Shown piece by piece: positions 7,356 to 54,015 of a stretch of 64,000 nucleotides of DNA. The first letter of the stretch is position 1. Each line of letters starts with the position of its first letter. This DNA is from Longimicrobiales bacterium (GTDB lineage: Bacteria; Gemmatimonadota; Gemmatimonadetes; Longimicrobiales; Gaopeijiaceae): NCBI GenBank assembly GCA_965219445.1, contig CBDCNQ010000002.1, forward strand, positions 352,001 to 416,000, in the 5' to 3' direction. Under the pieces are notes generated by a model, which worked only from the letters and a program-made list of their open reading frames with translations, did not search any database and was not told the origin of the DNA. The translations under genes were made by a program, and so were the position numbers.

Positions 7356-7382
7356 ACTGTCCAACGAAGTAGGACCACCTCA
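7356..7382 (+). mobile_element. Probable isolated IS3-type terminal inverted repeat
   Basis: CTGTCCAACGAAGTAGGACCACCTCA ends in CA and directly abuts a 5'-truncated histidine kinase. Confidence 0.35.
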
Positions 7383-7384
7383 GG

Positions 7385-14125: not shown

Positions 14126-14217
14126 TCCATGCGAGTGTGCACGGTGATGCGCAGCAAAATCGCAGAGACGTTAGCTCAGCGGCGGCGGCCGGTTCCAACC
14201 GCGGAGGAGCAGTGACG

Positions 14218-28119: not shown

Positions 28120-28129
28120 AGAACCCTCT

Positions 28130-28168
28130 TTCATGCACAGCTTCATGCACAGCCCTTCGGGTGCATGA
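28130..28168. repeat. Putative integrase arm-binding repeats
   Basis: TTCATGCACAGC twice in tandem plus inverted GTGCATGA, between int and tRNA. Confidence 0.55.
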
Positions 28169-28216
28169 GAACGGAAAGAGCCAGAAATGGCTTTCTGAAG
28201 GGAACGAAACACTACT

Positions 28217-28290
<74 letters not shown>

Positions 28291-29433: not shown

Positions 29434-29491
29434 GGCGTCCTCCTTACCGGTTGATACTAACCTCGTGGATCGCTGCGCGGCTCAGAGAGGG

Positions 29492-31058
29492 CGGAACCTG
29501 TCAACGCCAGTGAGACACTCTTGGAAATCAATTAGAGAGCAATCTCCTGTGTCGTGAGGGATGGGGTGGGAGGATTGATCCAGACGGCCTCCGGGAGTGG
29601 TTTAGGCTTCGGCTCACCGGAGACGAAGCGCTCGGGATGAGCGGCCCATGCCTCACGGAGCACGGCCTTCCTGCAGGCGATGATCCGATCGGCGTGACCG
29701 AAGTGGACCTGTTCGGGGGTCAGCATCGAGATGCCGCCATGGCGGTGCTCGGCATTATACCAACGGAAGAACGAGCGACAGAAGGTCTTGGCTTGCCCCT
29801 GATCCCCGAACCGGCCGGGAAACGAGGGATGGTACTTCAAGGTCTTGAACTGAGCCTCGGAGAACGGATTGTCATCCGAGACCTGGGGTCGGCCCAACGA
29901 GCGGGTCACGCCGAGATCGGCGAGTAGTTGAGCCGTGCATTGGCTCGTCATCGGAGCCCCTCGATCGGAATGCAGGGTCAGGAGGTGGGGCTGGACGCCA
30001 TGCTTCAAGCAACTCTGCTGGATCAGCCGGCTGGCCAGGGCAGAGTTCTCCCGATCCGCCACCATCCATCCCACGACGTAGCGGCTGAAGATGTCCAGGA
30101 TCACGTAGAGGTAGAAGTAACTCCACTTCTTCGGCCCCAGCAGCCGGGTGATATCCCAGGACCAGACCTGGTTCGGGCCCCTCGCCATCAACTCGGGCTT
30201 CTGGTATTTGGGATGACTCCGCTGCGCTCGACGCTCCTGAACCGGCACCTGGGAAGCCAGAACGCGATACATCGTACGCTCGCTGCACAGGTAGACGTCC
30301 TCGTCGAGCAGCGTCGCCACCACCTCGGCTGGGGACCGGTCCACGAACCGCTCCGAACACAGGGTGTCGAAAATCTTGTCCCGCTCCCTCTCACTTAAGG
30401 CCCGGGCGGGGGTCGGGCGGGGCTGCTGATGCCCGGTCGATGCACTCCGACGACGGTAGAACGTGGCTCGCGGCACCCTGAGCGCATCGCACGCGGGCTT
30501 CACCCCTACGTGCTTGGCTAGCTCCTGGGTCGCCTTCATGAGTTCGTCCCGTCCTCGAGGCTCAATCCCAGCAGCCCTGCAACTTTTCCCTGGACGTCGA
30601 TGATCAAGTGCGCCTTCTGGAGCTCCTTCTCGAGGCGAGTGTTCTCGCGCTCCAGCTTGCGCACCTTCTCCTCCAGCGGATTGCGCTCGCGCTTACGGCC
30701 TCGTTTCTTCGACAGCGCTTTCAGGGACCCGCTATGCGCCGCCTTGCGCCATGTCGTCAGGTGCGACGAGTACAAGCCCTCCCGCCGTAGGAGTCGGCCA
30801 ACCTCTCCGGGCTCCGTGCACCGGTCCGCTTCTTCGACGATCCGCAGCTTGTACGACGGAGCGAACCGCCGGCGCAGCGGCCTATCTACCACCTCCGAGT
30901 CCGCAGGAGCTGCCGCGCTTCGCTTACCGTCCCAGGTTGGTGGGGCTATTCCATTCTCTTTCATTCTCTCTCGGTGTCTCAGCATCCTCGGTTTCTCTGC
31001 CTTCGCCCTACTCTAATTCCTTAGCTGCTCCGTGTCTCACGTAAGTTGGCAGAGAGGG
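29492..31058 (-). mobile_element. IS3-family element, 1567 bp (orfA 30536-30985, orfB 29532-30539)
   Basis: WSWDIT, HSDRG, DNPFSE DDE; orfA/orfB overlap ATGA; matching copies at 37976 and 44331. Confidence 0.92.
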
Positions 31059-31341
31059 CTGAGTTCCACGGCTATGGGGCGATCGAAGCAGAAACCGGAT
31101 CGAAATTCTACTTCGCCGCGCCCTACCACGCTCTTGGGAAAGGGGGACCAGCGAGAACACGAACGGTCTGATTCGTCAGTACCTACCGAAGCGTACCAGC
31201 ATGGCTCACATCACCCAGCATGCTTGCAACCGCATCGCTCACAAACTCAACAACCGACCCAGGAAGCGTTTAGGCTATCGCACCCCCGAGGAATGCTATG
31301 TACAGATCTAGCTCGTGTTGCACTTCAAAGTTGATCCGAAG
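31059..31341 (+). mobile_element. IS30-family 3' fragment ending at a cassette start
   Basis: ENTNGLIRQYLPK..LNNRPRKRLG; end GTGTTGCACTTCAAAGTTGATCCGAAG. Confidence 0.85.
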
Positions 31342-31855
31342 CAGCAGCCTTACCACGCCCTCTACGGCGACGTTTGGTCTGTTCCGGCCGATTGCTCTGC
31401 GGCGAGACAACGACATCGACATCACGCCCAAGAAGGTGGAGCAAGGCCAGCATCTGACCCACAGACTTCTTGGAATAGGTCGAATCCAGAAGGCGGTAGA
31501 ACTGGCTCGCAGAGGTTCCAAGGCGACGAATGAGTTCTCGCTTACTCAAGTCGGTGGACTCCACGGCCTTCTGCGCTTCCAACGTCAAGCGGTGAAGCAG
31601 GAGGTCGTTCAGATAACCCGGATCTTGATTGTACTCGAGTACGGCGTCGAGGTGGACGGTGTCCTCGCCCCCCTTGGCAAGACGATACGTGAAGCCCTCC
31701 TTGCCCAGGTCTTCATCCGGAAAAGCTTCGGTGATCCGATTCTTGGGATCCGGTTGTAGCCGGAGGAGTGCATAGGGGAAGGTGTAGGCGCCTGTACGAG
31801 TCTCGATTTCGAACGCCTTCTTACGGTTGTTTGCCCTCACGCTTTCGATCTTCAC
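31325..31855 (-). CDS. HTH antitoxin-like protein (reverse-oriented cassette gene)
   Basis: LSKRELIRRLGTSASQFYRLLD; coupled to the DUF4160-like gene. Confidence 0.65.
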   Translation of the reverse strand: MKIESVRANNRKKAFEIETRTGAYTFPYALLRLQPDPKNRITEAFPDEDLGKEGFTYRLAKGGEDTVHLDAVLEYNQDPGYLNDLLLHRLTLEAQKAVESTDLSKRELIRRLGTSASQFYRLLDSTYSKKSVGQMLALLHLLGRDVDVVVSPQSNRPEQTKRRRRGRGKAAASDQL

Positions 31856-32046
31856 AGCAACCCTTCCTCGCTCAGTTCCGTGATCAGACGCAGGATCCGA
31901 TTCGTAGGCCTGCCTTTCATCGGCGCGTGGTTCTCAAGGTCCCATTTGAGAACGAGGGTGCCGTCGCGATAGACGTGAACGTGGTGGGGGCTATGGTCAC
32001 CTTTCCAAGTCACGAATACGAAGCCGCCTCGTCGGATCTTGCCCAT
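31852..32046 (-). CDS. DUF4160-like putative toxin
   Basis: DHSPHHVHV motif; own promoter TTGCTT-17-TAGCAT just upstream of ATG. Confidence 0.65.
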   Translation of the reverse strand: MGKIRRGGFVFVTWKGDHSPHHVHVYRDGTLVLKWDLENHAPMKGRPTNRILRLITELSEEGLL

Positions 32047-32106
32047 GTGATATGCTACCACCTACGGTAACACTAAGCAAGATTGCCTCGCACGTTGGGG
32101 GCTGCT

Positions 32107-32201
32107 GTATAACGGATCTGCGATTCTGCTGCGCGGCTAATGTGGTGACCGCAAGCGAAGCGCGCGAGCCTGATGTCTACCGCGACTGCAGCAATCGCTT
32201 G
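32107..32201 (+). repeat. attC site interrupted by IS110 at the crossover
   Basis: R'' GTATAAC, arms GCGATTCTGCTG/CAGCAATCGC, then IS110 left end. Confidence 0.85.
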
Positions 32202-33411
32202 ATACTCATGCAGGCCCCCTCCTGGACCTCTCAGAGAGAGGACGGAATGATCAGAGCGCGACGCTCGATCCATCCAACCCAGGAGGGGAACCATGCGCTT
32301 CTACACCGGCCAGCATCGATACTACTGTGGCATCGACCTTCACGCTCGCACGCTCTACCTCTGTATCCTGGACTGCCAGGGCAAGATACGACTACACAAG
32401 AGGCTACGCTGTGAGCGCGAGGCACTGCTTCGCGCCCTCGAGCCGTACCGTTCAGATCTCGTCGTGGGCAGCGAGTGCATCTTCTGCTGGTACTGGCTCG
32501 CCGATCTCTGTGCTCGCGAGCAGATCCCCTTCGTGCTCGGCCATGCGCTCTACATGAAGGCGATCCATGGGGCCAAGGCGAAGAACGACCACATCGACTC
32601 CCACAAGACGGCGGTGCTGCTGCGCGGGGGTGCCTTTCCGGTGGCCTACGTCTATCCCCCGCAGATGCGAGCCACGCGCGATGTGCTCCGGCGCCGACTC
32701 TACTTCGTACGCAAGCGCGGCGAACTCCTCGCCCACGTCCGTAACACCTTTCATCAGTACAACCTGCCTCGGCCCTCCGGTCAGCTCCTCTATAAGAAGA
32801 ACCGCGAGGGACTGGCCCAGGCATTCGACGATCGCATGATCCAGAGGACCATCGAGGCGGATCTCGCACTCGCGGATCGCTTCGACCCCGTGATCCGAGA
32901 ACTCGAGCGCACGATCGAAGAAGAAGCCCGCGTCCACGACCACGACACGCTGCAGCGGCTGCGAACCATCCCCGGCATTGGCCGCATCCGGGACAGCGCT
33001 TTCAGGGACCCGCTATGCGCCGCCTTGCGCCATGTCGTCAGGTGCGACGAGTACAAGCCCTCCCGCCGTAGGAGTCGGCCAACCTCTCCGGGCTCCGTGC
33101 ACCGGTCCGCTTCTTCGACGATCCGCAGCTTGTACGACGGAGCGAACCGCCGGCGCAGCGGCCTATCTACCACCTCCGAGTCCGCAGGAGCTGCCGCGCT
33201 TCGCTTACCGTCCCAGGTTGGTGGGGCTATTCCATTCTCTTTCATTCTCTCTCGGTGTCTCAGCATCCTCGGTTTCTCTGCCTTCGCCCTACTCTAATTC
33301 CTTAGCTGCTCCGTGTCTCACGTAAGTTGGCAGAGAGGGCTCCGCTTACGGCGCCGCTCCGCGGCGCGGAGGAGGGAACTTGCGCGCTCTTGACTCCGGG
33401 GGCCTGATAAG
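32202..33411 (+). mobile_element. IS110 (attC-targeting) copy, internally replaced by IS3 fragment 32989-33339
   Basis: Left end ATACTCATGCAGGCCCCC, tnp 5' part, right end ...GGGGGCCTGATAAG. Confidence 0.85.
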
Positions 33412-33458
33412 TGTTAGAGCGCTTGCCCTCGATGGTTATACCATGGTATTATAACGGT

Positions 33459-33695
33459 ATGAAAACAGCGATATCACTACCAGATGACCTCTTTGAGTCT
33501 GCCGACGCCCTCGCCGAGCGGTTAGGGTTGTCCCGAAGCGAGCTCTACGCAACGGCCGTTGCGGAGTACCTAGCCAAACACCGTGATGAGGATGTGACAG
33601 GCAGACTGAACGATGTCTTCGCCGACGAACCCAGCGGTATCGAGCCGGCGTTAAGGGCAGCCCAGGCACGAAGTGTGAGTTCGGCTGAGTGGTAG
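33459..33695 (+). CDS. CopG/RHH antitoxin
   Basis: MKTAISLPDDLF..A..LGLSRSELY; palindromic operator overlapping -10. Confidence 0.8.
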   Translation: MKTAISLPDDLFESADALAERLGLSRSELYATAVAEYLAKHRDEDVTGRLNDVFADEPSGIEPALRAAQARSVSSAEW

Positions 33696-34033
33696 TACAA
33701 CGTCGTGAGGTGTGGTGGGCCGATCTCGAGGAGCCTCGCGGATCTGAGCCCGGCTTTCGCCGCCCGATCCTCGTCGTCCAAGCCGACTCCTTCAATCGCA
33801 GCAGACTGCGGACAGTGCTCGGAGTAGTACTGACGTCGAACACGCGGCTCCTTGACGCCCCTGGCAACGTCCTTCTCCCGGCCCGGAATAGCGGCCTGCC
33901 CAAAGACTCGGTGGCCAACGTCACGCAGATCGTGACCCTTGATGAGGCCTACCTGTCGGAGCGAACGGGGCGCTTACCCCCTAAGCTGATGGCCCATGTC
34001 GATGCGGGTCTGAAGCTAGTCCTTGATCTATAG
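33689..34033 (+). CDS. PemK/MazF family toxin
   Basis: VWWADL.EPRGSEPG.RRP.LVVQ.D.FN, DSVANV.QI. Confidence 0.9.
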   Translation: MVVQRREVWWADLEEPRGSEPGFRRPILVVQADSFNRSRLRTVLGVVLTSNTRLLDAPGNVLLPARNSGLPKDSVANVTQIVTLDEAYLSERTGRLPPKLMAHVDAGLKLVLDL

Positions 34034-34045
34034 CCCGACCAAGCG

Positions 34046-34140
34046 CTCTAACGGATCTGCGATTCTGCTGCGCGAACAAGATGCCGACCGCAAGCGAAGC
34101 GCGCGAGCCTCAAGTCTACCGCGACAGTAGCAATCGCTTG
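34046..34140 (+). repeat. attC of the MazEF-like cassette (33413-34140), IS110-interrupted
   Basis: CAAGCGCTCTAAC is the exact complement of cassette start GTTAGAGCGCTTG. Confidence 0.9.
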
Positions 34141-34255
34141 ATACTCATGCAGGCCCCCTCCTGGACCTCTCAGAGAGAGGACGGAATGATCAGAGCGCGA
34201 CGCTCGATCCATCCAACCCAGGAGGGGAACCATGCGCTTCTACACCGGCCAGCAT
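34141..34255 (+). mobile_element. IS110 left-end fragment
   Basis: Matches the left end at 32202. Confidence 0.9.
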
Positions 34256-35312
34256 CCCTCTCTCATGAAGGCGACCCAGGAGCTAGCCAAGCACGTAGGG
34301 GTGAAGCCCGCGTGCGATGCGCTCAGGGTGCCGCGAGCCACGTTCTACCGTCGTCGGAGTGCATCGACCGGGCATCAGCAGCCCCGCCCGACCCCCGCCC
34401 GGGCCTTAAGTGAGAGGGAGCGGGACAAGATTTTCGACACCCTGTGTTCGGAGCGGTTCGTGGACCGGTCCCCAGCCGAGGTGGTGGCGACGCTGCTCGA
34501 CGAGGACGTCTACCTGTGCAGCGAGCGTACGATGTATCGCGTTCTGGCTTCCCAGGTGCCGGTTCAGGAGCGTCGAGCGCAGCGGAGTCATCCCAAATAC
34601 CAGAAGCCCGAGTTGATGGCGAGGGGCCCGAACCAGGTCTGGTCCTGGGATATCACCCGGCTGCTGGGGCCGAAGAAGTGGAGTTACTTCTACCTCTACG
34701 TGATCCTGGACATCTTCAGCCGCTACGTCGTGGGATGGATGGTGGCGGATCGGGAGAACTCTGCCCTGGCCAGCCGGCTGATCCAGCAGAGTTGCTTGAA
34801 GCATGGCGTCCAGCCCCACCTCCTGACCCTGCATTCCGATCGAGGGGCTCCGATGACGAGCCAATGCACGGCTCAACTACTCGCCGATCTCGGCGTGACC
34901 CGCTCGTTGGGCCGACCCCAGGTCTCGGATGACAATCCGTTCTCCGAGGCTCAGTTCAAGACCTTGAAGTACCATCCCTCGTTTCCCGGCCGGTTCGGGG
35001 ATCAGGGGCAAGCCAAGACCTTCTGTCGCTCGTTCTTCCGTTGGTATAATGCCGAGCACCGCCATGGCGGCATCTCGATGCTGACCCCCGAACAGGTCCA
35101 CTTCGGTCACGCCGATCGGATCATCGCCTGCAGGAAGGCCGTGCTCCGTGAGGCATGGGCCGCTCATCCCGAGCGCTTCGTCTCCGGTGAGCCGAAGCCT
35201 AAACCACTCCCGGAGGCCGTCTGGATCAATCCTCCCACCCCATCCCTCACGACACAGGAGATTGCTCTCTAATTGATTTCCAAGAGTGTCTCACTGGCGT
35301 TGACAGGTTCCG
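34256..35312 (+). mobile_element. IS3 derivative lacking orfA; orfB fused in frame to the IS110 start codon (34232-35272)
   Basis: Left tip CCCTCTCT joined to CATGAAG; intact right end. Confidence 0.85.
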
Positions 35313-35766
35313 GTTCCGTACCAGCTCCGACAAGCACTGCGTCCTCACCTTCGTCGATCGTAAGACGGGCTACGTGATGATCGGCAAGCTCGAGGCTCGT
35401 ACCGTCGAGGCTACGAACCGTCGAGCCGTTCGTCTGATCAAGACTGCCGCTCGCCCCACTCACACCATCACGGCCGACAACGGAACTGAGTTCCACGGCT
35501 ATGGGGCGATCGAAGCAGAAACCGGATCGAAATTCTACTTCGCCGCGCCCTACCACTCTTGGGAAAGGGGGACCAGCGAGAACACGAACGGTCTGATTCG
35601 TCAGTACCTACCGAAGCGTACCAGCATGGCTCACATCACCCAGCATGCTTGCAACCGCATCGCTCACAAACTCAACAACCGACCCAGGAAGCGTTTAGGC
35701 TATCGCACCCCCGAGGAATGCTATGTACAGATCTAGCTCGTGTTGCACTTCAAAGTTGATCCGAAG
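35313..35766 (+). mobile_element. IS30-family 3' fragment ending at a cassette start
   Basis: ITADNGTEF, PYHSWERGTSENTNG; same right end as 31341. Confidence 0.88.
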
Positions 35767-35836
35767 TAGCCCTTCCCTCCAGGCTCGGGATTCAGTATAC
35801 GTATAGTACGTTTTGAAACATACGTAGGAAGGACCC

Positions 35837-36067
35837 ATGGCAAAGACCAAGCTCACGCTGTCAGTTGACAAGGCTCTGATTGTGCGAGCTAAACGGTTCT
35901 CGCGGAGGAACGACACCACAGTCTCGGAGTTGGTCTCAAGGTTCTTGGCGTCGCTGGACGATGAGCGAGGTCGGGCGGCGCCTATCACATCGCGTCTACG
36001 TGGAGTCCTCCCTGCTGCCGTCAAACGCGAGGAACATCGGCGGCATCTTGAAGTGAAGCACGGGTGA
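35837..36067 (+). CDS. DUF6364-like RHH antitoxin
   Basis: KTKLTLSVD..LI.RAK..S.....VSELV; coupled to the PIN gene. Confidence 0.75.
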   Translation: MAKTKLTLSVDKALIVRAKRFSRRNDTTVSELVSRFLASLDDERGRAAPITSRLRGVLPAAVKREEHRRHLEVKHG

Positions 36068-36480
36068 AACGGATTCTTCTCGACATCAACGTGGTTCTCG
36101 ACATCTTAGCCGACCGGAAACCCTTCGCTGAGGAGGCTGCCGCGCTCTTCGGAGTGATCGAAACCGGAGGCGTGCAAGGCTTCGTCGCGGCCCATACGGT
36201 GACCACGCTTCACTATCTCCTGGCGAAGCACCTGGGGAAGGCGAGGACACGACGGGTGCTGATGGACCTGCTTCAGTTGCTCCGAGTGGTGGAGGTAGAC
36301 GAGGATCGTTTGCGGCATGCACTGGGGCTGAACTGGACGGACTTCGAGGACGCGGTTCAGGCAGCGTGCGCGGAGAAGGCTGAGGCAGACTACCTCGTGA
36401 CCCGGGACAAGGCCGGGTTCAAGAAGTCTTCAGTACGACCAGTAACGCCAAGCGAGTTGCTTGCTTTGATCCAGGAGTAG
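36064..36480 (+). CDS. PIN domain toxin
   Basis: LLDINVVLD, DFEDAVQ, LVTRD. Confidence 0.88.
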   Translation: MKRILLDINVVLDILADRKPFAEEAAALFGVIETGGVQGFVAAHTVTTLHYLLAKHLGKARTRRVLMDLLQLLRVVEVDEDRLRHALGLNWTDFEDAVQAACAEKAEADYLVTRDKAGFKKSSVRPVTPSELLALIQE

Positions 36481-36493
36481 ATGGATCGGGGCT

Positions 36494-36593
36494 ACCTAAC
36501 GGATCTGCATTTCTGCTGCGCGTCAATCTGCACTCCGCGCACATTGTGCGCGACTCTAACGCCGACCGCGACTGCAGCAAATGCTTGTTAGAA
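36494..36593 (+). repeat. Intact attC site (100 bp)
   Basis: R'' ACCTAAC, arms GCATTTCTGCTG/CAGCAAATGC, R' GTTAGAA. Confidence 0.9.
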
Positions 36594-36657
36594 CGCGCTG
36601 CGGCGGCACTCATCAGCCTCCGTAGTGAGTCAGACGCAGGGGGCTGGCCAGGCGCGA

Positions 36658-37755
36658 CTATAGTGAATCCGCGAACCCCTTGATATCTCGAATAGTGGCC
36701 GCGAACACTTCCGGGAGCGCTTTTCGGAAAACCATATCGCCAGAGTGGCAGGTGCCATTGACGGTCCGGCTGTAGACGTTTACGCCAGCCGCCATGAGCA
36801 TCTGGTGGTACTTCAGTCCCTCGTCCCGTAAAGGGTCTAGCTCATTGACCGATATGACATGCGGGGGCAGACCTTGCAGGTCCTGAGGCTCGGCGAAATA
36901 TGGCCAGCAAAGCGGATTGTGATCGTTCTCGTGCGCGGGGTCATATGCGACGGCACACGCGCCCAACATGCTGCAGTTGAGGAAGTAATCGTCGTTTTCG
37001 TAAAGGGATGGCAGCTCCGAGATCTTGTTGGCCCATGCGTTGGAGATGTACGGACATAGCGCGTAGGCGCCGTCGATCTGTTCGAGCTTGTCATCCTTCT
37101 TGGCCTTTAGAGTCATGGCCAACGAGAGGTTGCCGCCACCGGACTCACCGGACACGACAATCGTGGAAATCCCAAGCGCGGCTTTGTTATCGAACGTCCA
37201 CTGTAGCCCGCTCATGCAATCGTTGAGTCCTGCAGGGAACGGGTGGTTGCCGAGCTTCCCTGCGCCGTTCCGGAACTCCACACCCACCACCACCATTCCG
37301 ACAGCGGAAAGCTCGTCGCGCCAGCGCGTGGCGAGAGAGCCGGCGGCCTCCAGAAGGACCATGGCACCTCCGTGCATATGATACACACACGGTAGCGGAC
37401 CAGAAGCATTCTGGGGCTTGTGCATAAAGAGGCTGATGTCGTTGTCGTCCACTCCCTTTATCACTTCGGTACGCCTCTCCACACTCTCAATCGGTGGTAA
37501 GTCCGTGAGCCAAACTTTGAAGAGGTCTTCGTAGCCCGGCTCCGCCACGGCAATGAACTCGAGTATTTCCTCGAGTTGCGATTCAGCGGTGACCGGTGCG
37601 GGTGGTGGGGCCTCGTCGAAGCCAAATTCGGCGAGGGCGGCCACCATTCGAGGGTGGGCACGGGGATCAGTCTTTAAGACGCTGTCAGGATCGGCGAGTC
37701 GGCCTGGCGAGAAGGGCTGATCGGTTTTGGAACGGACTTGGCCGGACATAGTCAT
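36658..37755 (-). CDS. Alpha/beta hydrolase (HSL-type esterase), reverse-oriented cassette gene
   Basis: HGGA, GESGGG, DPLRDEG, H; cassette ends GTTAGAACGCGC / GCGCGTTCTAAC. Confidence 0.88.
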   Translation of the reverse strand: MTMSGQVRSKTDQPFSPGRLADPDSVLKTDPRAHPRMVAALAEFGFDEAPPPAPVTAESQLEEILEFIAVAEPGYEDLFKVWLTDLPPIESVERRTEVIKGVDDNDISLFMHKPQNASGPLPCVYHMHGGAMVLLEAAGSLATRWRDELSAVGMVVVGVEFRNGAGKLGNHPFPAGLNDCMSGLQWTFDNKAALGISTIVVSGESGGGNLSLAMTLKAKKDDKLEQIDGAYALCPYISNAWANKISELPSLYENDDYFLNCSMLGACAVAYDPAHENDHNPLCWPYFAEPQDLQGLPPHVISVNELDPLRDEGLKYHQMLMAAGVNVYSRTVNGTCHSGDMVFRKALPEVFAATIRDIKGFADSL

Positions 37756-37790
37756 GGTTCTGCCTCTCCTGTTCTGAACCTCTTGGCGCG

Positions 37791-37885
37791 TTCTAACGTC
37801 TCTGCGATTCTGCTGCGCGGCTAATGTGGTGACCGCACGCGAAGCGCGCGAGCCTGATGTCTACCGCGACAGTAGCAATCGCTTG
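37791..37885 (+). repeat. attC site, IS110-interrupted
   Basis: R'' TTCTAAC ... AATCGCTTG; its R' GTTAGAG is displaced to 41049. Confidence 0.9.
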
Positions 37886-37975
37886 ATACTCATGCAGGCC
37901 CCCTCCTGGACCTCTCAGAGAGAGGACGGAATGATCAGAGCGCGACGCTCGATCCATCCAACCCAGGAGGGGAAC

Positions 37976-39542
37976 CGGAACCTGTCAACGCCAGTGAGAC
38001 ACTCTTGGAAATCAATTAGAGAGCAATCTCCTGTGTCGTGAGGGATGGGGTGGGAGGATTGATCCAGACGGCCTCCGGGAGTGGTTTAGGCTTCGGCTCA
38101 CCGGAGACGAAGCGCTCGGGATGAGCGGCCCATGCCTCACGGAGCACGGCCTTCCTGCAGGCGATGATCCGATCGGCGTGACCGAAGTGGACCTGTTCGG
38201 GGGTCAGCATCGAGATGCCGCCATGGCGGTGCTCGGCATTATACCAACGGAAGAACGAGCGACAGAAGGTCTTGGCTTGCCCCTGATCCCCGAACCGGCC
38301 GGGAAACGAGGGATGGTACTTCAAGGTCTTGAACTGAGCCTCGGAGAACGGATTGTCATCCGAGACCTGGGGTCGGCCCAACGAGCGGGTCACGCCGAGA
38401 TCGGCGAGTAGTTGAGCCGTGCATTGGCTCGTCATCGGAGCCCCTCGATCGGAATGCAGGGTCAGGAGGTGGGGCTGGACGCCATGCTTCAAGCAACTCT
38501 GCTGGATCAGCCGGCTGGCCAGGGCAGAGTTCTCCCGATCCGCCACCATCCATCCCACGACGTAGCGGCTGAAGATGTCCAGGATCACGTAGAGGTAGAA
38601 GTAACTCCACTTCTTCGGCCCCAGCAGCCGGGTGATATCCCAGGACCAGACCTGGTTCGGGCCCCTCGCCATCAACTCGGGCTTCTGGTATTTGGGATGA
38701 CTCCGCTGCGCTCGACGCTCCTGAACCGGCACCTGGGAAGCCAGAACGCGATACATCGTACGCTCGCTGCACAGGTAGACGTCCTCGTCGAGCAGCGTCG
38801 CCACCACCTCGGCTGGGGACCGGTCCACGAACCGCTCCGAACACAGGGTGTCGAAAATCTTGTCCCGCTCCCTCTCACTTAAGGCCCGGGCGGGGGTCGG
38901 GCGGGGCTGCTGATGCCCGGTCGATGCACTCCGACGACGGTAGAACGTGGCTCGCGGCACCCTGAGCGCATCGCACGCGGGCTTCACCCCTACGTGCTTG
39001 GCTAGCTCCTGGGTCGCCTTCATGAGTTCGTCCCGTCCTCGAGGCTCAATCCCAGCAGCCCTGCAACTTTTCCCTGGACGTCGATGATCAAGTGCGCCTT
39101 CTGGAGCTCCTTCTCGAGGCGAGTGTTCTCGCGCTCCAGCTTGCGCACCTTCTCCTCCAGCGGATTGCGCTCGCGCTTACGGCCTCGTTTCTTCGACAGC
39201 GCTTTCAGGGACCCGCTATGCGCCGCCTTGCGCCATGTCGTCAGGTGCGACGAGTACAAGCCCTCCCGCCGTAGGAGTCGGCCAACCTCTCCGGGCTCCG
39301 TGCACCGGTCCGCTTCTTCGACGATCCGCAGCTTGTACGACGGAGCGAACCGCCGGCGCAGCGGCCTATCTACCACCTCCGAGTCCGCAGGAGCTGCCGC
39401 GCTTCGCTTACCGTCCCAGGTTGGTGGGGCTATTCCATTCTCTTTCATTCTCTCTCGGTGTCTCAGCATCCTCGGTTTCTCTGCCTTCGCCCTACTCTAA
39501 TTCCTTAGCTGCTCCGTGTCTCACGTAAGTTGGCAGAGAGGG
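37976..39542 (-). mobile_element. IS3-family element, 1567 bp, 3-bp TSD AAC
   Basis: Matches 29492-31058; empty site known from other IS110 copies. Confidence 0.93.
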
Positions 39543-39546
39543 AACC

Positions 39547-40593
39547 ATGCGCTTCTACACCGGCCAGCATCGATACTACTGTGGCATCGACCTTCACGCT
39601 CGCACGCTCTACCTCTGTATCCTGGACTGCCAGGGCAAGATACGACTACACAAGAGGCTACGCTGTGAGCGCGAGGCACTGCTTCGCGCCCTCGAGCCGT
39701 ACCGTTCAGATCTCGTCGTGGGCAGCGAGTGCATCTTCTGCTGGTACTGGCTCGCCGATCTCTGTGCTCGCGAGCAGATCCCCTTCGTGCTCGGCCATGC
39801 GCTCTACATGAAGGCGATCCATGGGGCCAAGGCGAAGAACGACCACATCGACTCCCACAAGACGGCGGTGCTGCTGCGCGGGGGTGCCTTTCCGGTGGCC
39901 TACGTCTATCCCCCGCAGATGCGAGCCACGCGCGATGTGCTCCGGCGCCGACTCTACTTCGTACGCAAGCGCGGCGAACTCCTCGCCCACGTCCGTAACA
40001 CCTTTCATCAGTACAACCTGCCTCGGCCCTCCGGTCAGCTCCTCTATAAGAAGAACCGCGAGGGACTGGCCCAGGCATTCGACGATCGCATGATCCAGAG
40101 GACCATCGAGGCGGATCTCGCACTCGCGGATCGCTTCGACCCCGTGATCCGAGAACTCGAGCGCACGATCGAAGAAGAAGCCCGCGTCCACGACCACGAC
40201 ACGCTGCAGCGGCTGCGAACCATCCCCGGCATTGGCCGCATCCTGGCCCTCACGCTGCTCTATGAGATCCACGACATCGCTCGCTTCAGCACGGTGCAGC
40301 GCTTCAGCTCCTACTGTCGACTCGCCAAGCCCGAGCACCGCAGTGCAGGCAAGCGAGTCGGCAGCGGAGGAGCCAAGATCGGCAACGCACACCTCAAGTG
40401 GGCGTTCAGTGAGGCGGCCGTCCTCTTCCTTCGCGACAACGTCCGCGGCCAGGCCCATCTCAAGAGGCTCGCGCGCCGCCACGGCAAGGGCAAGGCGCTC
40501 AGCATCCTTGCGGCTCGCATCGGACGCGCCACCTACTTCATGCTCAAGAACCGGGAGGCATTCGACACCGAACGCTTCTATACACGCACCTGA
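39547..40593 (+). CDS. IS110 family recombinase
   Basis: GIDLH, GSEC, KNDHIDS (DEDD); IPGIG, RSAGK, GNAHLK. Confidence 0.95.
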   Translation: MRFYTGQHRYYCGIDLHARTLYLCILDCQGKIRLHKRLRCEREALLRALEPYRSDLVVGSECIFCWYWLADLCAREQIPFVLGHALYMKAIHGAKAKNDHIDSHKTAVLLRGGAFPVAYVYPPQMRATRDVLRRRLYFVRKRGELLAHVRNTFHQYNLPRPSGQLLYKKNREGLAQAFDDRMIQRTIEADLALADRFDPVIRELERTIEEEARVHDHDTLQRLRTIPGIGRILALTLLYEIHDIARFSTVQRFSSYCRLAKPEHRSAGKRVGSGGAKIGNAHLKWAFSEAAVLFLRDNVRGQAHLKRLARRHGKGKALSILAARIGRATYFMLKNREAFDTERFYTRT

Positions 40594-41020
40594 CGGGGAG
40601 GGGAGGTTGTGAGCCTTGATTTCTAACTCGAGCGGGCACCGGATGCCTGACAGCCGCCTCGCTTGATTGGACGCCTCCTCCCGCTCCCCACACATCGAGT
40701 CGGTCTCACTCAGGACTCTGCCCCTCACCCGAGCCCGGAGCTAACTGGCCCGCCGCCTCACGGCCCGAGCCTGCTCTCCTTGAATGGAGTCGGACGGCAC
40801 GAGGGCACAGATGAATTTCTAGGTCGTAGCGGCCAGCAGGCTCCTGCTCCGCCGCCTTCGAGCTCGCCTCGAGGGAGATCCGGCGGTTAAACCTCGATAA
40901 GTGTTTGGTGCAGAGCTCACTGCGCTCGCACCTGCTAACGGAAACCAAGTCAGAGGACTCAGCGACCGATGCTCACTCCGCTTACGGCGCCGCTCCGCAG
41001 CGCGGAGGAGGGAACTTGCG
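40594..41020 (+). ncRNA. Predicted bridge/seek RNA of the attC-targeting IS1111
   Basis: Stem-flanked TTCTAAC (40621) and TCGCTTG (40659) match the target halves; GATAAGTG (40896) matches the donor end. Confidence 0.72.
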
Positions 41021-41088
41021 CGCTCTTGACTCCGGGGGCCTGATAAGTGTTAGAGCGCAGCCGACCGAGCCCGAAGTACCCTACGCCA

Positions 41089-41117
41089 TTGACGGATATA
41101 CGCCAATGACGTATCAT
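41089..41117 (+). promoter_or_regulatory. Sigma-70 promoter of the TA cassette
   Basis: TTGACG-17-TATCAT with overlapping imperfect palindrome; ATG 5 nt downstream. Confidence 0.65.
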
Positions 41118-41122
41118 AGCTC

Positions 41123-41440
41123 ATGGTCATCAAGGAGACCTCCATTTTCACCAAGCAGGTGAACAAGCTATTGGACGCGGAGTCCTATCGATTCTTGCAG
41201 CTTCGCCTCGTCGCGGATCCTGAGGCCGGAGATCTCATGCGTGGGACCGGTGGCCTGCGGAAGATTCGGTGGCAGGGGTCTGGTCGCGGAAAACGAGGAG
41301 GTGTCAGGGTGATCTATTATTGGGCCGCGAATCATGACGTCGTTCTGATGTTGCTGATGTACGGAAAGAATGAGCGAGATGACCTCTCTGCCGAACAGAG
41401 CAAGGTGTTGGTCGCTCTTGTGAAGGAGGAGTTCAAATGA
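41123..41440 (+). CDS. RelE/HigB-like toxin
   Basis: PEAGDLMRGTGGLRKIRW..GRGKRGGVRVIYY..YGKNE. Confidence 0.88.
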   Translation: MVIKETSIFTKQVNKLLDAESYRFLQLRLVADPEAGDLMRGTGGLRKIRWQGSGRGKRGGVRVIYYWAANHDVVLMLLMYGKNERDDLSAEQSKVLVALVKEEFK

Positions 41441-41724
41441 GGGACGAGCTTTTCAGCGAACTCGAAGAAAGTCTGAAGGAAGGGGGAGCCATCCTCCGAG
41501 GCGAGCTGGATCCATCCCGCCAGGTAGCCTTTGAGGCTCCAAACGTAGCTGAGATTCGGGAGGAATACGGATTATCTCAGACCAAGTTTGCGGCTCTGCT
41601 TGGGATCAGCGTCCGCACGCTACAGAATTGGGAGCAGGGTCGCCGCCACCCCCAGGGACCTGCGAGAATCTTGTTGAGGGTGGCAGCGAAGCACCCTCGG
41701 GCGGTCCTCGACTCGGTAAAATGA
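41437..41724 (+). CDS. HigA-like HTH antitoxin
   Basis: LSQTKFAALLGISVRTLQNWEQGRR.P.GPA. Confidence 0.88.
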   Translation: MRDELFSELEESLKEGGAILRGELDPSRQVAFEAPNVAEIREEYGLSQTKFAALLGISVRTLQNWEQGRRHPQGPARILLRVAAKHPRAVLDSVK

Positions 41725-41755
41725 CCGGGCCAAAGCACGAGATCGCTTACCTGCG

Positions 41756-41850
41756 CTCTAACGGACTTGCGATTCTGCTGCGCGTCCAAAATGCCGACCG
41801 GAAGCGAAGCGCGCGAGCCTGATGTCTAACGCGACAGGAGCAATCGCTTG
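41756..41850 (+). repeat. attC of the RelE/HigA cassette, IS110-interrupted
   Basis: CTGCGCTCTAAC complements cassette start GTTAGAGCGCAG. Confidence 0.9.
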
Positions 41851-42724
41851 ATACTCATGCAGGCCCCCTCCTGGACCTCTCAGAGAGAGGACGGAATGAT
41901 CAGAGCGCGACGCTCGATCCATCCAACCCAGGAGGGGAACCATGCGCTTCTACACCGGCCAGCATCGATACTACTGTGGCATCGACCTTCACGCTCGCAC
42001 GCTCTACCTCTGTATCCTGGACTGCCAGGGCAAGATACGACTACACAAGAGGCTACGCTGTGAGCGCGAGGCACTGCTTCGCGCCCTCGAGCCGTACCGT
42101 TCAGATCTCGTCGTGGGCAGCGAGTGCATCTTCTGCTGGTACTGGCTCGCCGATCTCTGTGCTCGCGAGCAGATCCCCTTCGTGCTCGGCCATGCGCTCT
42201 ACATGAAGGCGATCCATGGGGCCAAGGCGAAGAACGACCACATCGACTCCCACAAGACGGCGGTGCTGCTGCGCGGGGGTGCCTTTCCGGTGGCCTACGT
42301 CTATCCCCCGCAGATGCGAGCCACGCGCGATGTGCTCCGGCGCCGACTCTACTTCGTACGCAAGCGCGGCGAACTCCTCGCCCACGTCCGTAACACCTTT
42401 CATCAGTACAACCTGCCTCGGCCCTCCGGTCAGCTCCTCTATAAGAAGAACCGCGAGGGACTGGCCCAGGCATTCGACGATCGCATGATCCAGAGGACCA
42501 TCGAGGCGGATCTCGCACTCGCGGATCGCTTCGACCCCGTGATCCGAGAACTCGAGCGCACGATCGAAGAAGAAGCCCGCGTCCACGACCACGACACGCT
42601 GCAGCGGCTGCGAACCATCCCCGGCATTGGCCGCATCCTGGCCCTCACGCTGCTCTATGAGATCCACGACATCGCTCGCTTCAGCACGGTGCAGCGCTTC
42701 AGCTCCTACTGTCGACTCGCCAAG
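41851..42724 (+). mobile_element. IS110 copy truncated by IS3 insertions
   Basis: Same left end and tnp up to YCRLAK. Confidence 0.9.
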
Positions 42725-44324
42725 CGGAACCTGTCAACAGCGATGAGACACGGGGAGTCATAGATTAGTGAGCAGGCTGCGGTGTCGGAGCCGCAGCTGG
42801 TGGATTGATCCAGACCTCCGTTGGGAGAGGCTGGGGCGTGGGGATTCCCTGCACGAAGCGTTCAGGGTGTTCGGACCACGCCTGCTGGAGAGTGCGCTCA
42901 CGCTGGGCGAGCACGTCACGGGCTCGGTCGTGATGGACATCAGCCGGGGTGAGCATCGCGATTCCGCCGTGGCGATGCTCATGGTTGTACCAAGGGAAGA
43001 AGGATCGGCAGAAGTCGATCGCCGCGCCGATGTCGGCGAAGCGTCCGGGGAAGTTGGGGTAGTATTTGACGGTCTTGAAGTGCGCCTCCGAGAAGGGGTT
43101 GTCGTCGCTGACCCGGGGACGGCCGAGCGAGCGGGTGATCCCGAGGTCGGCGAGCAGCTGGGCCGTGCACTTGCTGGTCATCGGGGCCCCGCGGTCGGAG
43201 TGCAGGGTCAGCGTCTCGGGCTGGACATCCTGCTTGAGGCAGCTCTCCTGGATGAGCCGGCAGGCGAGCGCGGAGTTCTCGCGGTCGGCGACCATCCATC
43301 CGACCACGTACCGGCTGAAGATGTCGATGAGGACGTAGAGGTAGAAGTACGACCACTTCTCGGGTCCGAGAAGCCGGGTGATGTCCCACGACCAGGTCTG
43401 GTTCGGTGCCGTGGCCACGAGCTGGGGCTTCGTGTAGGCGGGATGCGTGAGCTGACTGCGCCGCTCACGCACGGGGTGATCCTCCTGGAGGATCCTGTAC
43501 ATCGTGCGTTCTGAGCAGAGGTACTCGCCCTCGTCGAGGAGGGTGGCCACAACCTCTGCGGGAGATCGGTCGACGAAGCGCGGGCAAGCGAGGGTCTCAC
43601 GCACCTTCTCGCGCTCGGATTCATCGAGAGCCCGGGCGGGGCGCTGCCTGGGCTGCTGGTGCCCGGTCGTGGGCTTACGGCGCCGGTAGAACGTGGCACG
43701 CGCCACACCCAGTGCTCGGCACGCCGGCGCGGCGCCGACCTCCCGAGCCAGGGAGGCAGCGGCCATCAGGAGTTCTTTCCGCTGTCGAAGCTCAACCCCA
43801 GCAGCCCGGCAACTTTTCCCTGGACTTCCAGGATCGTTTCCGCCGTGGCAAGCTGCTTCTCGAGCCGGGCCACTTCGGCCTCGAGCTCATCCACCCTCTT
43901 CTGGAGGGAGTTGCGGCGGGCCGGCTTGCGGCCCCGCCGCTTCGGCGTCAGGCCCTTCAGAGAGCCCTCGCGCCGTGCCTTTCGCCATGCCGTGAGATGA
44001 GAGCTGTACAGACCCTCCCGACGCACGATCCGCCCAACCTCGCCGGGCTCCGAGCACCGGTCGGTCTCTTCCAGGATCCTGAGCTTGTACTCCGCGGTGA
44101 ACTGCCGGCGGGTCGGCTTGGCCACCACCTCCGGATCCCGAGCCCGATTCCGCTCGGCGACTCGGGCCCTGGCGGCCTCGTCGCTACGCTCCTCGCCCCC
44201 CAGGGCCCGAGCACCCACACCCATACCAATCATCGTATCTCTCCCCTCTACCATCGCCATCCACCTCCGCCCCCTTCAGTAATTCCAAAGGTGCCAGGTG
44301 TCTCACTGATATTGGCAGAGAGGG
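42725..44324 (-). mobile_element. Second, divergent IS3-family element (orfA 43766-44260, orfB 42765-43766), TSD AAG
   Basis: DDE motifs; ends CGGAACCTGTCAA and TTGGCAGAGAGGG. Confidence 0.92.
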
Positions 44325-44330
44325 AAGCCC

Positions 44331-45897
44331 CGGAACCTGTCAACGCCAGTGAGACACTCTTGGAAATCAATTAGAGAGCAATCTCCTGTGTCGTGAGGGA
44401 TGGGGTGGGAGGATTGATCCAGACGGCCTCCGGGAGTGGTTTAGGCTTCGGCTCACCGGAGACGAAGCGCTCGGGATGAGCGGCCCATGCCTCACGGAGC
44501 ACGGCCTTCCTGCAGGCGATGATCCGATCGGCGTGACCGAAGTGGACCTGTTCGGGGGTCAGCATCGAGATGCCGCCATGGCGGTGCTCGGCATTATACC
44601 AACGGAAGAACGAGCGACAGAAGGTCTTGGCTTGCCCCTGATCCCCGAACCGGCCGGGAAACGAGGGATGGTACTTCAAGGTCTTGAACTGAGCCTCGGA
44701 GAACGGATTGTCATCCGAGACCTGGGGTCGGCCCAACGAGCGGGTCACGCCGAGATCGGCGAGTAGTTGAGCCGTGCATTGGCTCGTCATCGGAGCCCCT
44801 CGATCGGAATGCAGGGTCAGGAGGTGGGGCTGGACGCCATGCTTCAAGCAACTCTGCTGGATCAGCCGGCTGGCCAGGGCAGAGTTCTCCCGATCCGCCA
44901 CCATCCATCCCACGACGTAGCGGCTGAAGATGTCCAGGATCACGTAGAGGTAGAAGTAACTCCACTTCTTCGGCCCCAGCAGCCGGGTGATATCCCAGGA
45001 CCAGACCTGGTTCGGGCCCCTCGCCATCAACTCGGGCTTCTGGTATTTGGGATGACTCCGCTGCGCTCGACGCTCCTGAACCGGCACCTGGGAAGCCAGA
45101 ACGCGATACATCGTACGCTCGCTGCACAGGTAGACGTCCTCGTCGAGCAGCGTCGCCACCACCTCGGCTGGGGACCGGTCCACGAACCGCTCCGAACACA
45201 GGGTGTCGAAAATCTTGTCCCGCTCCCTCTCACTTAAGGCCCGGGCGGGGGTCGGGCGGGGCTGCTGATGCCCGGTCGATGCACTCCGACGACGGTAGAA
45301 CGTGGCTCGCGGCACCCTGAGCGCATCGCACGCGGGCTTCACCCCTACGTGCTTGGCTAGCTCCTGGGTCGCCTTCATGAGTTCGTCCCGTCCTCGAGGC
45401 TCAATCCCAGCAGCCCTGCAACTTTTCCCTGGACGTCGATGATCAAGTGCGCCTTCTGGAGCTCCTTCTCGAGGCGAGTGTTCTCGCGCTCCAGCTTGCG
45501 CACCTTCTCCTCCAGCGGATTGCGCTCGCGCTTACGGCCTCGTTTCTTCGACAGCGCTTTCAGGGACCCGCTATGCGCCGCCTTGCGCCATGTCGTCAGG
45601 TGCGACGAGTACAAGCCCTCCCGCCGTAGGAGTCGGCCAACCTCTCCGGGCTCCGTGCACCGGTCCGCTTCTTCGACGATCCGCAGCTTGTACGACGGAG
45701 CGAACCGCCGGCGCAGCGGCCTATCTACCACCTCCGAGTCCGCAGGAGCTGCCGCGCTTCGCTTACCGTCCCAGGTTGGTGGGGCTATTCCATTCTCTTT
45801 CATTCTCTCTCGGTGTCTCAGCATCCTCGGTTTCTCTGCCTTCGCCCTACTCTAATTCCTTAGCTGCTCCGTGTCTCACGTAAGTTGGCAGAGAGGG
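44331..45897 (-). mobile_element. IS3-family element, 1567 bp
   Basis: Third full-length matching copy. Confidence 0.93.
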
Positions 45898-46349
45898 GTT
45901 TCAAGGTATGCAGCGAACTCCGGCGTAACGAACTCTTGGACATCCGGCCAAAGGCGCCACAGAGGGTGGTCTTCGCGGAACGTGCCCCACCCGAGGGATT
46001 CCAACGCCTCCGCATCGAGGAGTCCTTCCTCAACCTGTAGGAATGTCGTCTCGTAAAGCCGAAGAATCGCGACGAAGTAGTTCGTCACCAGGAGACGATC
46101 CGACGGGTCGAACTCAGACCATGACGCCGAGTCCGCCATGAGAACGCGCCCCCATGCATCACTCAAGTCGCGGTTGGTTGCCGCCGCCATCCAAAGTTCA
46201 GTCACCGCGATCCCGAGGTCCTGATAGGCCGCCGCCCGCGCGGCCACCGCGTTCTGTCGAAGTTCCATTCCGATGAAGACCAGCGACAGCACGACACCGA
46301 TGAGGGCTATCGCTTCAGCAATCACTCGAACAGGAGGTCTTGGCTTCAT
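45898..46349 (-). CDS. Hypothetical membrane-anchored protein, probable first cassette, 3'-truncated by IS3
   Basis: AEAIALIGVVLSLVFIGMELRQN; preceded by GTTAGAT. Confidence 0.6.
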
Positions 46350-46377
46350 CCGGGGCTAGCACTTTGTCTCGGTCGCG

Positions 46378-46400
46378 ATCTAACTTTCAACTGTATCGCG
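46378..46400 (-). other. Candidate attI downstream of intI
   Basis: Minus strand CAGTTGAAAG^TTAGAT resembles the attI core AAAG^TTRRRY, about 30 bp before an ORF. Confidence 0.45.
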
Positions 46401-46570
46401 AATCCTCTGGAGTTTCTGAAGCGGATCCGCTGCCTGGATGGCAACGTAGGAGAGATGGACAGGGCCCGACAGACCCAGCGCGGCCCTCGCTTGTGGCTTC
46501 TTTGCCTTTGGCTTTGGGCTGCGCCGGAGACGTTTTGGTCGCGTCGGATGGACGGTTGCCGGGTGGCAGC

Positions 46571-47566
46571 CTAGTCCCGGTCCTCCGGTCGATCAAGTGG
46601 GCTGCGCATGCCCAGTCCGGCATCGGTGATGGCTTGCACGTAGATCATCGTCGTGCGGATGTCTTTGTGACCCATGAGCCTCTGCACCGAACGGGCGTCG
46701 TATCCGGCCCGCAGCATCTGAGTAGCGAAGGATCTGCGAAGGGTGTGACAGGTGACGGGCTTGGTAATGCCGGATGCTCGGGCCGCGTCCTTCATCCGTC
46801 TTTGCATGGCTGTCGGGTTGAGGTGGTACCGACCCTTCCTCCTAGTAGCGGGATCCCGCGACCATCGGCTCGCGGGGAATAGGAACTGCCACGACAGGTC
46901 GTAACCCGCTTGTGGATCCTTGCGATCCAGTGCACCCGGCAGTTGAGCCCAACCGCCTCCTCGGCGCCTGTCCTCCCGGTGCAGTTCCTTTACAAGAGAC
47001 ACCTGGCGGCGTAGTGCCGAACCGAGCCGCTCGGGCAGCATGACCCACCGGTCCTTGGCACCCTTCCCGTCCCGTATGGCGATTTGCAGCAGGTCGAAGT
47101 CGATGTCCTTAATCCGCAGTTGATGACACTCCGTCAGGCGGGCGCCCGTGCCATACATCAGCGAACCCAGTAGTCGATATTTGCCGGACAGATGGCCGAG
47201 CACGAGCCGCACCTGCCCGTGAGATAACACGGTCGGTATTCGCTGCGGCTCTCGGGCCCGAGGCATACCTTCAAGATCGTCGCGGCCCAGGACCTCCCTG
47301 AAGAAAAACGACAGCGCCGACGCGGCCTGATTGCGACTCTTTGGCGCCAACCTCCGCTCCTCCGTGAGAACGCTCAAGAACTGCTCCACATGCCGTCTGG
47401 TGAGATCCTCCACCGGAACACCGGGATGGGCGTCCGTGAATCGCCGGAGCCATCGCGCGTACACTTCTATCGTCCTATTCCGGTAACCCCTCTGTCTCAG
47501 GAGGCGGCGAGTGGTCGCGAGCGCTCGCTCGACATCGGGTCCCGGGCGCATGCTGAACGATCCCAC
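46571..47566 (-). CDS. intI: Integron integrase
   Basis: NQA.SAL.FFF..VL, YGTGAR..E, GKGAKDR, IntI-specific insert LPGALDRK.P.A....WQFLFP, HTLR, GH.DIRTTMIY. Confidence 0.95.
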   Translation of the reverse strand: MGSFSMRPGPDVERALATTRRLLRQRGYRNRTIEVYARWLRRFTDAHPGVPVEDLTRRHVEQFLSVLTEERRLAPKSRNQAASALSFFFREVLGRDDLEGMPRAREPQRIPTVLSHGQVRLVLGHLSGKYRLLGSLMYGTGARLTECHQLRIKDIDFDLLQIAIRDGKGAKDRWVMLPERLGSALRRQVSLVKELHREDRRRGGGWAQLPGALDRKDPQAGYDLSWQFLFPASRWSRDPATRRKGRYHLNPTAMQRRMKDAARASGITKPVTCHTLRRSFATQMLRAGYDARSVQRLMGHKDIRTTMIYVQAITDAGLGMRSPLDRPEDRD

Positions 47567-53420: not shown

Positions 53421-53451
53421 CCGTCCTCAACCCACGCCGCCCACCGATTCC

Positions 53452-53528
53452 GTCTAACGGATCTGCGATTCTGCTGCGCGGCTAATGTGGTGACCGCAAG
53501 CGCAGCGCGCGAGCCTGATGTCTACCGC
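53452..53528 (+). repeat. attC, right part deleted
   Basis: GTCTAACGGATCTGCGATTCTGCTGCGCGGCTAATG..., nearly identical to 32107. Confidence 0.85.
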
Positions 53529-53595
53529 TCCAGGATCACTGCGTCCCCTTGACCCGGTTCTTCTCAATGGTGTTAGATGGCGAGCCTCGCGTTAG

Positions 53596-53889: not shown

Positions 53890-54015
53890 CTGGTTTGCCT
53901 CCTTTTCGGACGATAGGGATTAGTGAGCCCAGCAGACCATCCGGTCTCGCGATTTTGCTGCGCGATCACCATGCCCATGAGCAGATCGAGATGCAAGCTC
54001 AGAGCCCAAGAGCGG

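Follow-up and report, generated by a model that had tools for sequence, protein, structure and literature searches.

An insertion element of the IS110 family was identified in 64,000 nucleotides of a Longimicrobiales bacterium genome (assembly GCA_965219445.1, contig CBDCNQ010000002.1, positions 352,001 to 416,000 of the forward strand). This whole stretch is referred to as the window, and coordinates without a prefix are positions in it. The element is about 1.6 kb long, has an IS1111-type layout and a recombinase that by its motifs is ISGsu4/ISMahy12-like, and very probably homes under RNA guidance into integron attC sites, where it enters the R'' box in antisense orientation relative to the cassettes. 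Its insertion site, orientation and core, four covarying guides and the direction of the cassette array can be read directly in the sequence. The initial annotation proposed a programmable recombinase aimed at the host's integron, which is a fair inference and has already been demonstrated by experiment for other elements. The principle of RNA-guided homing into attC is known, and no new mechanism is described here.

Junctions, guides and target sites

The element occupies 37886-41049 and comprises 1594 bases without an IS3-family element that is inserted in its leader. Four left junctions (AATCGCT-TG|ATACTC, starting at 32202, 34141, 37886 and 41851) and two right junctions (GATAAG-TG|TTAGAG, ending at 33413 and 41049) are present in the window as first annotated. 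On the plus strand, the left half of the target, TCGCT with the TG core (37879-37885, the bottom strand of the R''-L'' spacer), is followed by the left end and leader (37886-37969), which contain the subterminal repeat CAGGCCCCC at 37895-37903. The right end (41026-41049) contains a -35-like TTGACT (41026-41031), the inverted partner GGGGGCCTG (41034-41042) and the donor half GATAAG with the TG core, and adjoins the right half of the target, TTAGAG (41050-41055), which is the R'' box that the insertion displaced and reads CTCTAA on the top strand. These repeats are 9 bp long, and those of the IS1111 group are 7-17 bp (PMC11208160). The left end of about 91 nt compared with a 3' non-coding region of 456 nt (40594-41049) is an IS1111-type layout. 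Joining of the ends places GATACT 17 bases behind TTGACT, and the sequence given earlier for the circle junction is confirmed.

Eight left ends and five right ends of the element were found in the genome. All left ends are preceded by GCAATCGCT-TG, which gives a single fixed insertion point, and the TG core occupies the same target position at 8/8 left and 5/5 right junctions. The right ends are followed by TTAGAG (two), TTAGAC (two) or TTATGC (one). Three whole copies are present elsewhere (C2:285784-287380, C2:274102-275698 and C5:252235-253830) and are nearly identical to the window copy, which suggests a recent spread of the element. IS3 elements have interrupted or cut each of the four copies in the window; the copy at 37886-41049 carries 1.57 kb of IS3-family sequence in its leader and the other three are truncated. 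The form without this leader insert was seen in three DNA runs (joint 37969 to 39540).

The guides reported in the non-coding region, whose length had been put at about 450 nt, were located where they had been claimed. A predicted target-binding hairpin (40595-40689, plus strand, stem arms starting at 40595 and 40674) holds, in an internal loop, the right-target guide TTCTAAC (40621-40627) and the left-target guide TCGCTTG (40659-40665). Further along the same strand are a predicted right-donor guide ATGAATTTC (40811-40819), which is 7/9 complementary to the left end, and a predicted left-donor guide GATAAGTG (40896-40903). In both pairs (40621 before 40659, 40811 before 40896) the top-strand guide lies 5' of the bottom-strand guide, which is the IS1111 order.

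Covariation of the guide loops with their targets across homologs, which had been proposed as a check, was measured and found. A total of 160 homologous loci were gathered, of which 89, together with the window, were parsable for left junction, TG core and left guide; 71 were left out for a missing end, another core, an unparsable guide or a short protein match. Among the 90 elements, the left target guide matched the five bases before the core at 301/450 positions, compared with 188 +/- 8.5 for shuffled pairings (maximum 214 in 2000). Positions -3 to -7 each exceeded all 2000 shuffles, and positions -8 to -12 showed no signal. An earlier parser had given 152/215 matches vs 89.5 shuffled for 43 pairs. 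In a tree control (FastTree), independent pairs differing in the guide changed the target in the same way 82.5 times and in the opposite way 10.1 times, counts that are summed over 17 traits not mutually independent; slid guides were balanced (31/26, 23/26 and 24/25). The donor guides, including the imperfect right one, follow the donor at its variable base as well (left 77/85 vs 44.9 shuffled, right 58/80 vs 23.4, both without tree control). Alignment of 29 parsable target hairpins with at least 63% protein identity showed an outer stem with two-sided changes and both guides in an internal loop.

Single matches are less informative. When the non-coding region was dinucleotide-shuffled 1500 times, TCGCTTG arose in 5.3%, TCTAAC in 5.7% and GATAAGTG in 0.13%. 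One target guide alone is therefore weak evidence, since such a match arises by chance in about 5% of cases, and covariation across homologs decides. Judged by this covariation, the guides are real.

By analogy with IS621 and with ISEc11 and ISKpn4, the element would excise as a circle, the joined ends would form a promoter, and the 3' region would yield a two-loop bridge or seek RNA bound by the recombinase. Such RNA was copurified with TnpKpn4 and with TnpPst6, and for ISPa25 it has been predicted (Siddiquee 2024, PMC11187229). The target loop would pair with both strands around the TG core, directing insertion and recombination at the core. The right guide, almost fixed across the clade, is predicted to read the near-universal TAAC of R'', and the left guide would read the variable five-base R''-L'' spacer and be retuned to the attC family of each host.

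The target of the window copy is an attC site on the minus strand (37787-37885), now separated from its R'' box. It consists, on the minus (top) strand, of a 5-nt spacer, L'' with extrahelical bases, a loop, L', a 9-nt spacer and R' (GTTAGAA, 37797-37791), in which the IntI crossover would lie. Among the eight occupied sites in the genome, six copies are in whole attC bodies, one is in a half site and one adjoins an attC-like piece of 11 bases that has no hairpin partner. The perfect 11-mer TCGCTTGTTAG does not occur empty anywhere in the 4.56 Mb genome, which contains 15 sites one base off, among them the non-attC site C2:668509 considered below. The attC profile gave 34 hits, and the four empty ones that retain the R'' end each mismatch the guide or the core. 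A whole empty attC in the window (36490-36594, minus strand) has a spacer that differs from the left guide at 2/5 positions.

The insertion at C2:275697 was considered as proof that target sequence alone suffices and was rejected, since its flank matches attC at four further bases that the guide does not reach and may itself be a remnant of an attC. This insertion (C2:275698-275950), the only one outside a recognizable attC, follows a truncated c-type cytochrome-like open reading frame (ORF; CxxCH motif) and has 11 bases in common with attC.

It is possible, although on the unlikely side, that the guides are necessary and not sufficient, the recombinase also needing the attC hairpin or nearby attC sequence, so that targeting would be only partly programmable. 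An empty non-attC site (C2:668509) is identical to an occupied 12-mer, GCAA, which the guide does not reach, is common to all eight occupied sites, even the one without a hairpin partner, and attC-like L boxes were found in 50/90 homolog flanks vs 1.6 expected. However, there is a single such empty site, GCAA is plain attC sequence, 40/90 homologs are in flanks without a detected hairpin, and changes to the guides alone reprogrammed ISEc11 (PMC11187229). This alternative is compatible with RNA-guided homing and would simply limit it.

Several further results, like the empty 12-mer, weigh against RNA-guided homing into R''. The right target guide clearly covaries at one position only (40/57 vs 25.3, with some rows misparsed), and its AAC end in the parsed rows was required by the parser. 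One position of the right donor guide never matches (0/80). Single-sequence folds of the non-coding region were not more stable than shuffles (z -0.56 and -0.31), and such a fold partly pairs the guides with each other. No guide RNA or RNA-protein complex was observed in the RNA runs, the best of which held 12% of the words; two pieces of 151 bases, found at depth 2 and differing at 5-6 positions, do not count as evidence of expression. Neither a circle joint nor an empty-site joint appears among the contigs of four runs, which drop rare forms and cannot show absence. In genome G005, four perfect sites within 15 kb near its intI are empty; its sole copy has an altered left guide and an apparently broken gene. 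The attC sites of the window have an atypical 9-base L'-R' spacer, usually of 6 bases; among 50 well-paired homolog sites, a 9-base spacer fitted in 8 and an 8-base spacer in 10. The lineage of the recombinase is assigned from motifs and comparison by eye, and three toxin-antitoxin cassettes are on the plus strand, which alone would fit the opposite array direction.

A search of Rfam over 31000-47000 gave no match at E 0.1, and a promoter scan of 40500-41200 gave a cassette promoter at 41089 only and no terminator.

Recombinase lineage and related systems

The ORF at 39547-40593 (plus strand) encodes an IS110-family DEDD recombinase of 348 amino acids, with D15, E61, D99, D102 and S266 (in RSAG) assigned by motif position. 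It matches the IS110-family transposase model NF033542 (189.7 bits vs a cut-off of 140) and has a DEDD RuvC-like domain followed by a C-terminal Tnp domain with the catalytic serine (PF01548, 37.1 vs 29, and PF02371, 70.4 vs 21.3). Its closest named relatives (93-97%) are in Longimicrobiales genomes. Within the ISfinder set of PMC11187229, two of four motifs of the recombinase are restricted to ISGsu4 and ISMahy12, and another occurs in ISMahy12 alone. N- and C-terminal motifs, including SAG at the catalytic serine, are shared with ISGsu4, ISGsu5, ISMahy12, ISShfr7 and ISShwo5 (PMC11187229, PMC11208160), which by motif likely belong to the same clade. The IS1111 motif GL-P----S(t)G reads RSAG here, and the nearest named proteins come partly from the IS110 list and partly from the IS1111 list and do not fall in the tight IS1111 cluster. 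No protein named ISKpn4 or ISPa21 was among the 85 plasmid matches listed. The transposase is probably ISGsu4/ISMahy12-like, set apart from the ISKpn4/ISPa21 clade by motifs and by comparison by eye.

The element resembles ISKpn4, ISPst6, ISPa21 and ISPa25 in its attC target, its antisense insertion near the 5' end, the non-coding region downstream of the gene and the subterminal repeats. IS1111-attC elements are inserted antisense near the attC 5' end (Leon 2010, PMC3001079), and an ISPa25-like transposase is 46% identical to the ISPa21/ISPst6/ISKpn4 clade. The guide order is that of the IS1111-attC seekRNAs, and the promoter at the circle junction that was demonstrated for ISEc11 is predicted here. 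The transposase, in contrast, is of another lineage, with about 17% identity at group level. The insertion described here is inside R'' itself, whereas that of ISKpn4 is perhaps a few bases nearer L'', going by its printed non-coding region only.

If the element simply belonged to the IS1111-attC subgroup as described (ISKpn4, ISPst6, ISPa21, ISPa25), the shared layout, guide order and antisense insertion near the attC 5' end would be accounted for. This identity is nevertheless very unlikely in view of the recombinase motifs above, and in the matrix of PMC11187229 members of the ISGsu4/ISMahy12 group (ISGsu5 and ISShfr7) are 16.8-18.0% identical to ISPst6, ISKpn4 and ISPa21. The group also forms a separate cluster in the table of Durrant 2024 (PMC11208160).

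A separate, widespread lineage that homes into attC is probably represented, and it is likely that this clade acquired the habit independently. A literature search found no paper that ties the ISGsu4/ISMahy12 group to attC or describes its target or guide RNA, subscription journals, ISfinder entries and figures being outside its reach; both the lineage and its design of one fixed and one tunable guide appear undescribed in the literature covered.

IS621 (Durrant 2024, PMC11208160) has likewise a DEDD and serine recombinase, a 2-base core, separate target and donor loops and left and right guides. Unlike the element described here, it encodes its RNA in the left end with a reversed guide order, and the proteins show weak similarity, which does not extend beyond the C-terminal part (E 2.8e-6). 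Group IIC-attC introns (PMC3001079) are also directed by RNA to the bottom strand of attC, where they insert against the direction in which the cassettes are transcribed, but these are reverse-splicing retroelements with an unrelated enzyme.

The recombinase lineage is far from both IS621 and ISKpn4, and its dozens of natural guide-target pairs reveal rules of tolerance and make it a possible source of programmable recombinases. Convergent colonization of attC by several IS110 lineages is suggested, and in this genome a second lineage strikes the other end of the site. This second lineage shares about 27% identity with the first and occupies the same attC family (source genome, C5:254770-255699 and C4:300960-301125; genome G006, L195:1000-2130 and 6400-7520) in the same antisense direction, at another fixed point that lies about 14 bases inwards from the R' end. 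Both IS110 elements are present in one attC site near C4:301k.

Array direction and the IntI crossover

The initial annotation placed the insertion at the IntI crossover of four attC sites. A GTT is indeed present at the junction, but read on the bottom strand it is part of R'', the inverse core, and the IntI crossover, which lies in R', is about 95 bases away; the claim fails on the strand of intI and attI, the bulged arm, the hairpins of homologs and the cassette genes. The integron integrase gene intI (46571-47566, minus strand; TIGR02249, 345.7 bits vs a cut-off of 265) is the only over-cut-off match in the genome and is transcribed towards the array. This inverted arrangement has been described (PMC4889954) and named (PMC3575428). 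The attI site (46378-46394, minus strand) has its crossover G^TT at 46384/46383. The approximately 190 bases behind the intI stop codon are conserved in two of five related genomes examined (G005 and G008), and the conservation ends at this G^TT. Genomes G004 and G007 have a similar GTT motif at about the attI distance with little other likeness, and a transposon intervenes in G006. The strand of intI and the end of conservation at attI together indicate that the array runs on the minus strand, and intI, attI and the attC array are all present in this single orientation.

The cassette genes and the attC structure agree with this direction. Promoterless cassette genes begin 25-40 bases past the GTT of the end that faces away from the element. 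On the minus strand, the start of the first cassette gene lies about 35 bases beyond the attI GTT, and a hydrolase gene (37755-36658) and an ORF at 29433-29002 start likewise after their own GTT boxes. The antisense element at C2:285784 is preceded, at a distance of 120 bases, by the end of a 347-residue gene. An automatic test of ORF direction around attC sites gave a mixed result and is not used as support. Each site reads, on the minus strand, AAC, five bases, L'' with a bulge at its fourth base and a second bulge six bases on. The bulges belong to the L'' arm, the crossover is in R', and the position of the bulge decides strand choice (PMC5027507). Since the bulged arm adjoins the element, the arm of the element is the R''-L'' arm.

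The homologs give the same orientation. In 160-base flanks of the 90 sites, with variable spacers, the L boxes pair 7/7 33 times when the insertion point is read as R'' and once when it is read as R'; at six or more pairs the counts are 50 and 6, and shuffles expect 1.6. An earlier test with fixed spacers gave 26 vs 4 of 90. One homolog, in Vibrio campbellii, is presumably inserted at the 5' end of a VCR-type site.

A plus-strand array, with the element at the R' crossover G^TT, is highly improbable. It would account for the agreement of GTTAGAG at the junction with the core consensus, for the three plus-strand toxin-antitoxin operons that end 8-27 bases before the low-coordinate box, and for the bulged G and T on the minus strand, which are the usual bottom-strand identities (PMC5027507). 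However, attI and intI are on the minus strand, the decisive bulge position is on the arm of the element, the homolog sites divide 33 to 1 in favor of R'', and the promoterless genes begin right after the opposite box. In G005, the sites are on the strand of intI and the sequence switches at the distal G^TT. A toxin-antitoxin-like pair is also present on the minus strand; such cassettes therefore do not fix the direction, and they are roomy enough for promoters of their own.

Insertion into R'' rather than R' bears on cassette movement. Displacement of R'' by 1.6 kb from its partner would impair the hairpin that IntI needs, so that the cassette would tend to be fixed, and the insertion probably lowers cassette excision; the crossover in R' would stay untouched. 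As the left end leaves TATC where TAAC stood, some residual IntI activity is possible, although this is speculation. The occupied attC sites at 41757-41851 and C2:287380-287474 are identical over 95 bases and diverge just after the R' GTTAGA, as if one cassette end had recombined to two places, which is a hint of hitchhiking. A fuller proposal would place the element in a clade of attC-homing bridge recombinases that arose independently, as the third of its kind, and is found across many phyla. One guide would be locked on R'' and the other retuned, and a pseudo-R'' (TATC, pairing 3/4 with R') could still let IntI move cassettes while the element rides along; taken as a whole, this proposal is unlikely. 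The R'' insertion does yield a testable prediction, namely that cassette shuffling is frozen or that the element rides on it.

It is also highly improbable that the resemblance to guides is due to chance or to scars, with attC recognized by the protein alone, since single 6-7 base matches in about 5% of shuffled regions and the lack of observed RNA are outweighed by position-specific covariation with a sharp boundary, the tree control, and four segments in the expected order with a covarying stem.

Neighboring features

The IS3-family element in the leader (37970-39545, minus strand, ends uncertain by about 7 bases) contains ORFs at 39020-39469 and 38016-39023. This family is very abundant, with at least four copies or fragments in the window (including 29490-31060, 37970-39545 and 42725-45897) and more than 20 related ends in the genome. 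The segment 32103-33413 (plus strand) comprises a second attC and the damaged copy 32202-33413, in which the 3' part of the gene and the guide region are replaced by an IS3 fragment. A third attC with a left-end stump (34141-34256) capped by an IS3 fragment spans 34041-34256 (plus strand), and a fourth attC with the copy 41851-42725, which is cut off by another IS3-family element, spans 41751-42725 (plus strand).

Four toxin-antitoxin cassettes were recognized at 31325-32047, 33455-34033, 35838-36480 and 41123-41724 (a HicA-like pair by eye, MazF/RHH, PIN and RelE/HTH), three of which oppose the array. The bulges of this attC family read C and A on the recombining strand. Pieces of attC that keep the R' half and are without the R'' end are numerous and scattered (53450-53538, 14136-14176 and 53942-53976 in the window, and many on C3-C5). 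A tyrosine-recombinase remnant beside a tRNA-like sequence (by eye, 27400-28290) marks the left edge of the cassette region.

Two observations in related genomes (L194:2600-2860, 5720, 8610 and 13990 in G005; L196) concern possible crossover-using elements. In G005, three attC sites have one and the same sequence after the R' G^TT, and a module with a tyrosine recombinase and an IS91-like part starts exactly at the attI G^TT in G005 and G004. At locus L109, the right end of the element is present as a short tandem duplication, and at L002 the right flank resembles the sequence following the element's own donor-guide DNA; each may be an assembly artefact or a case of self-targeting.

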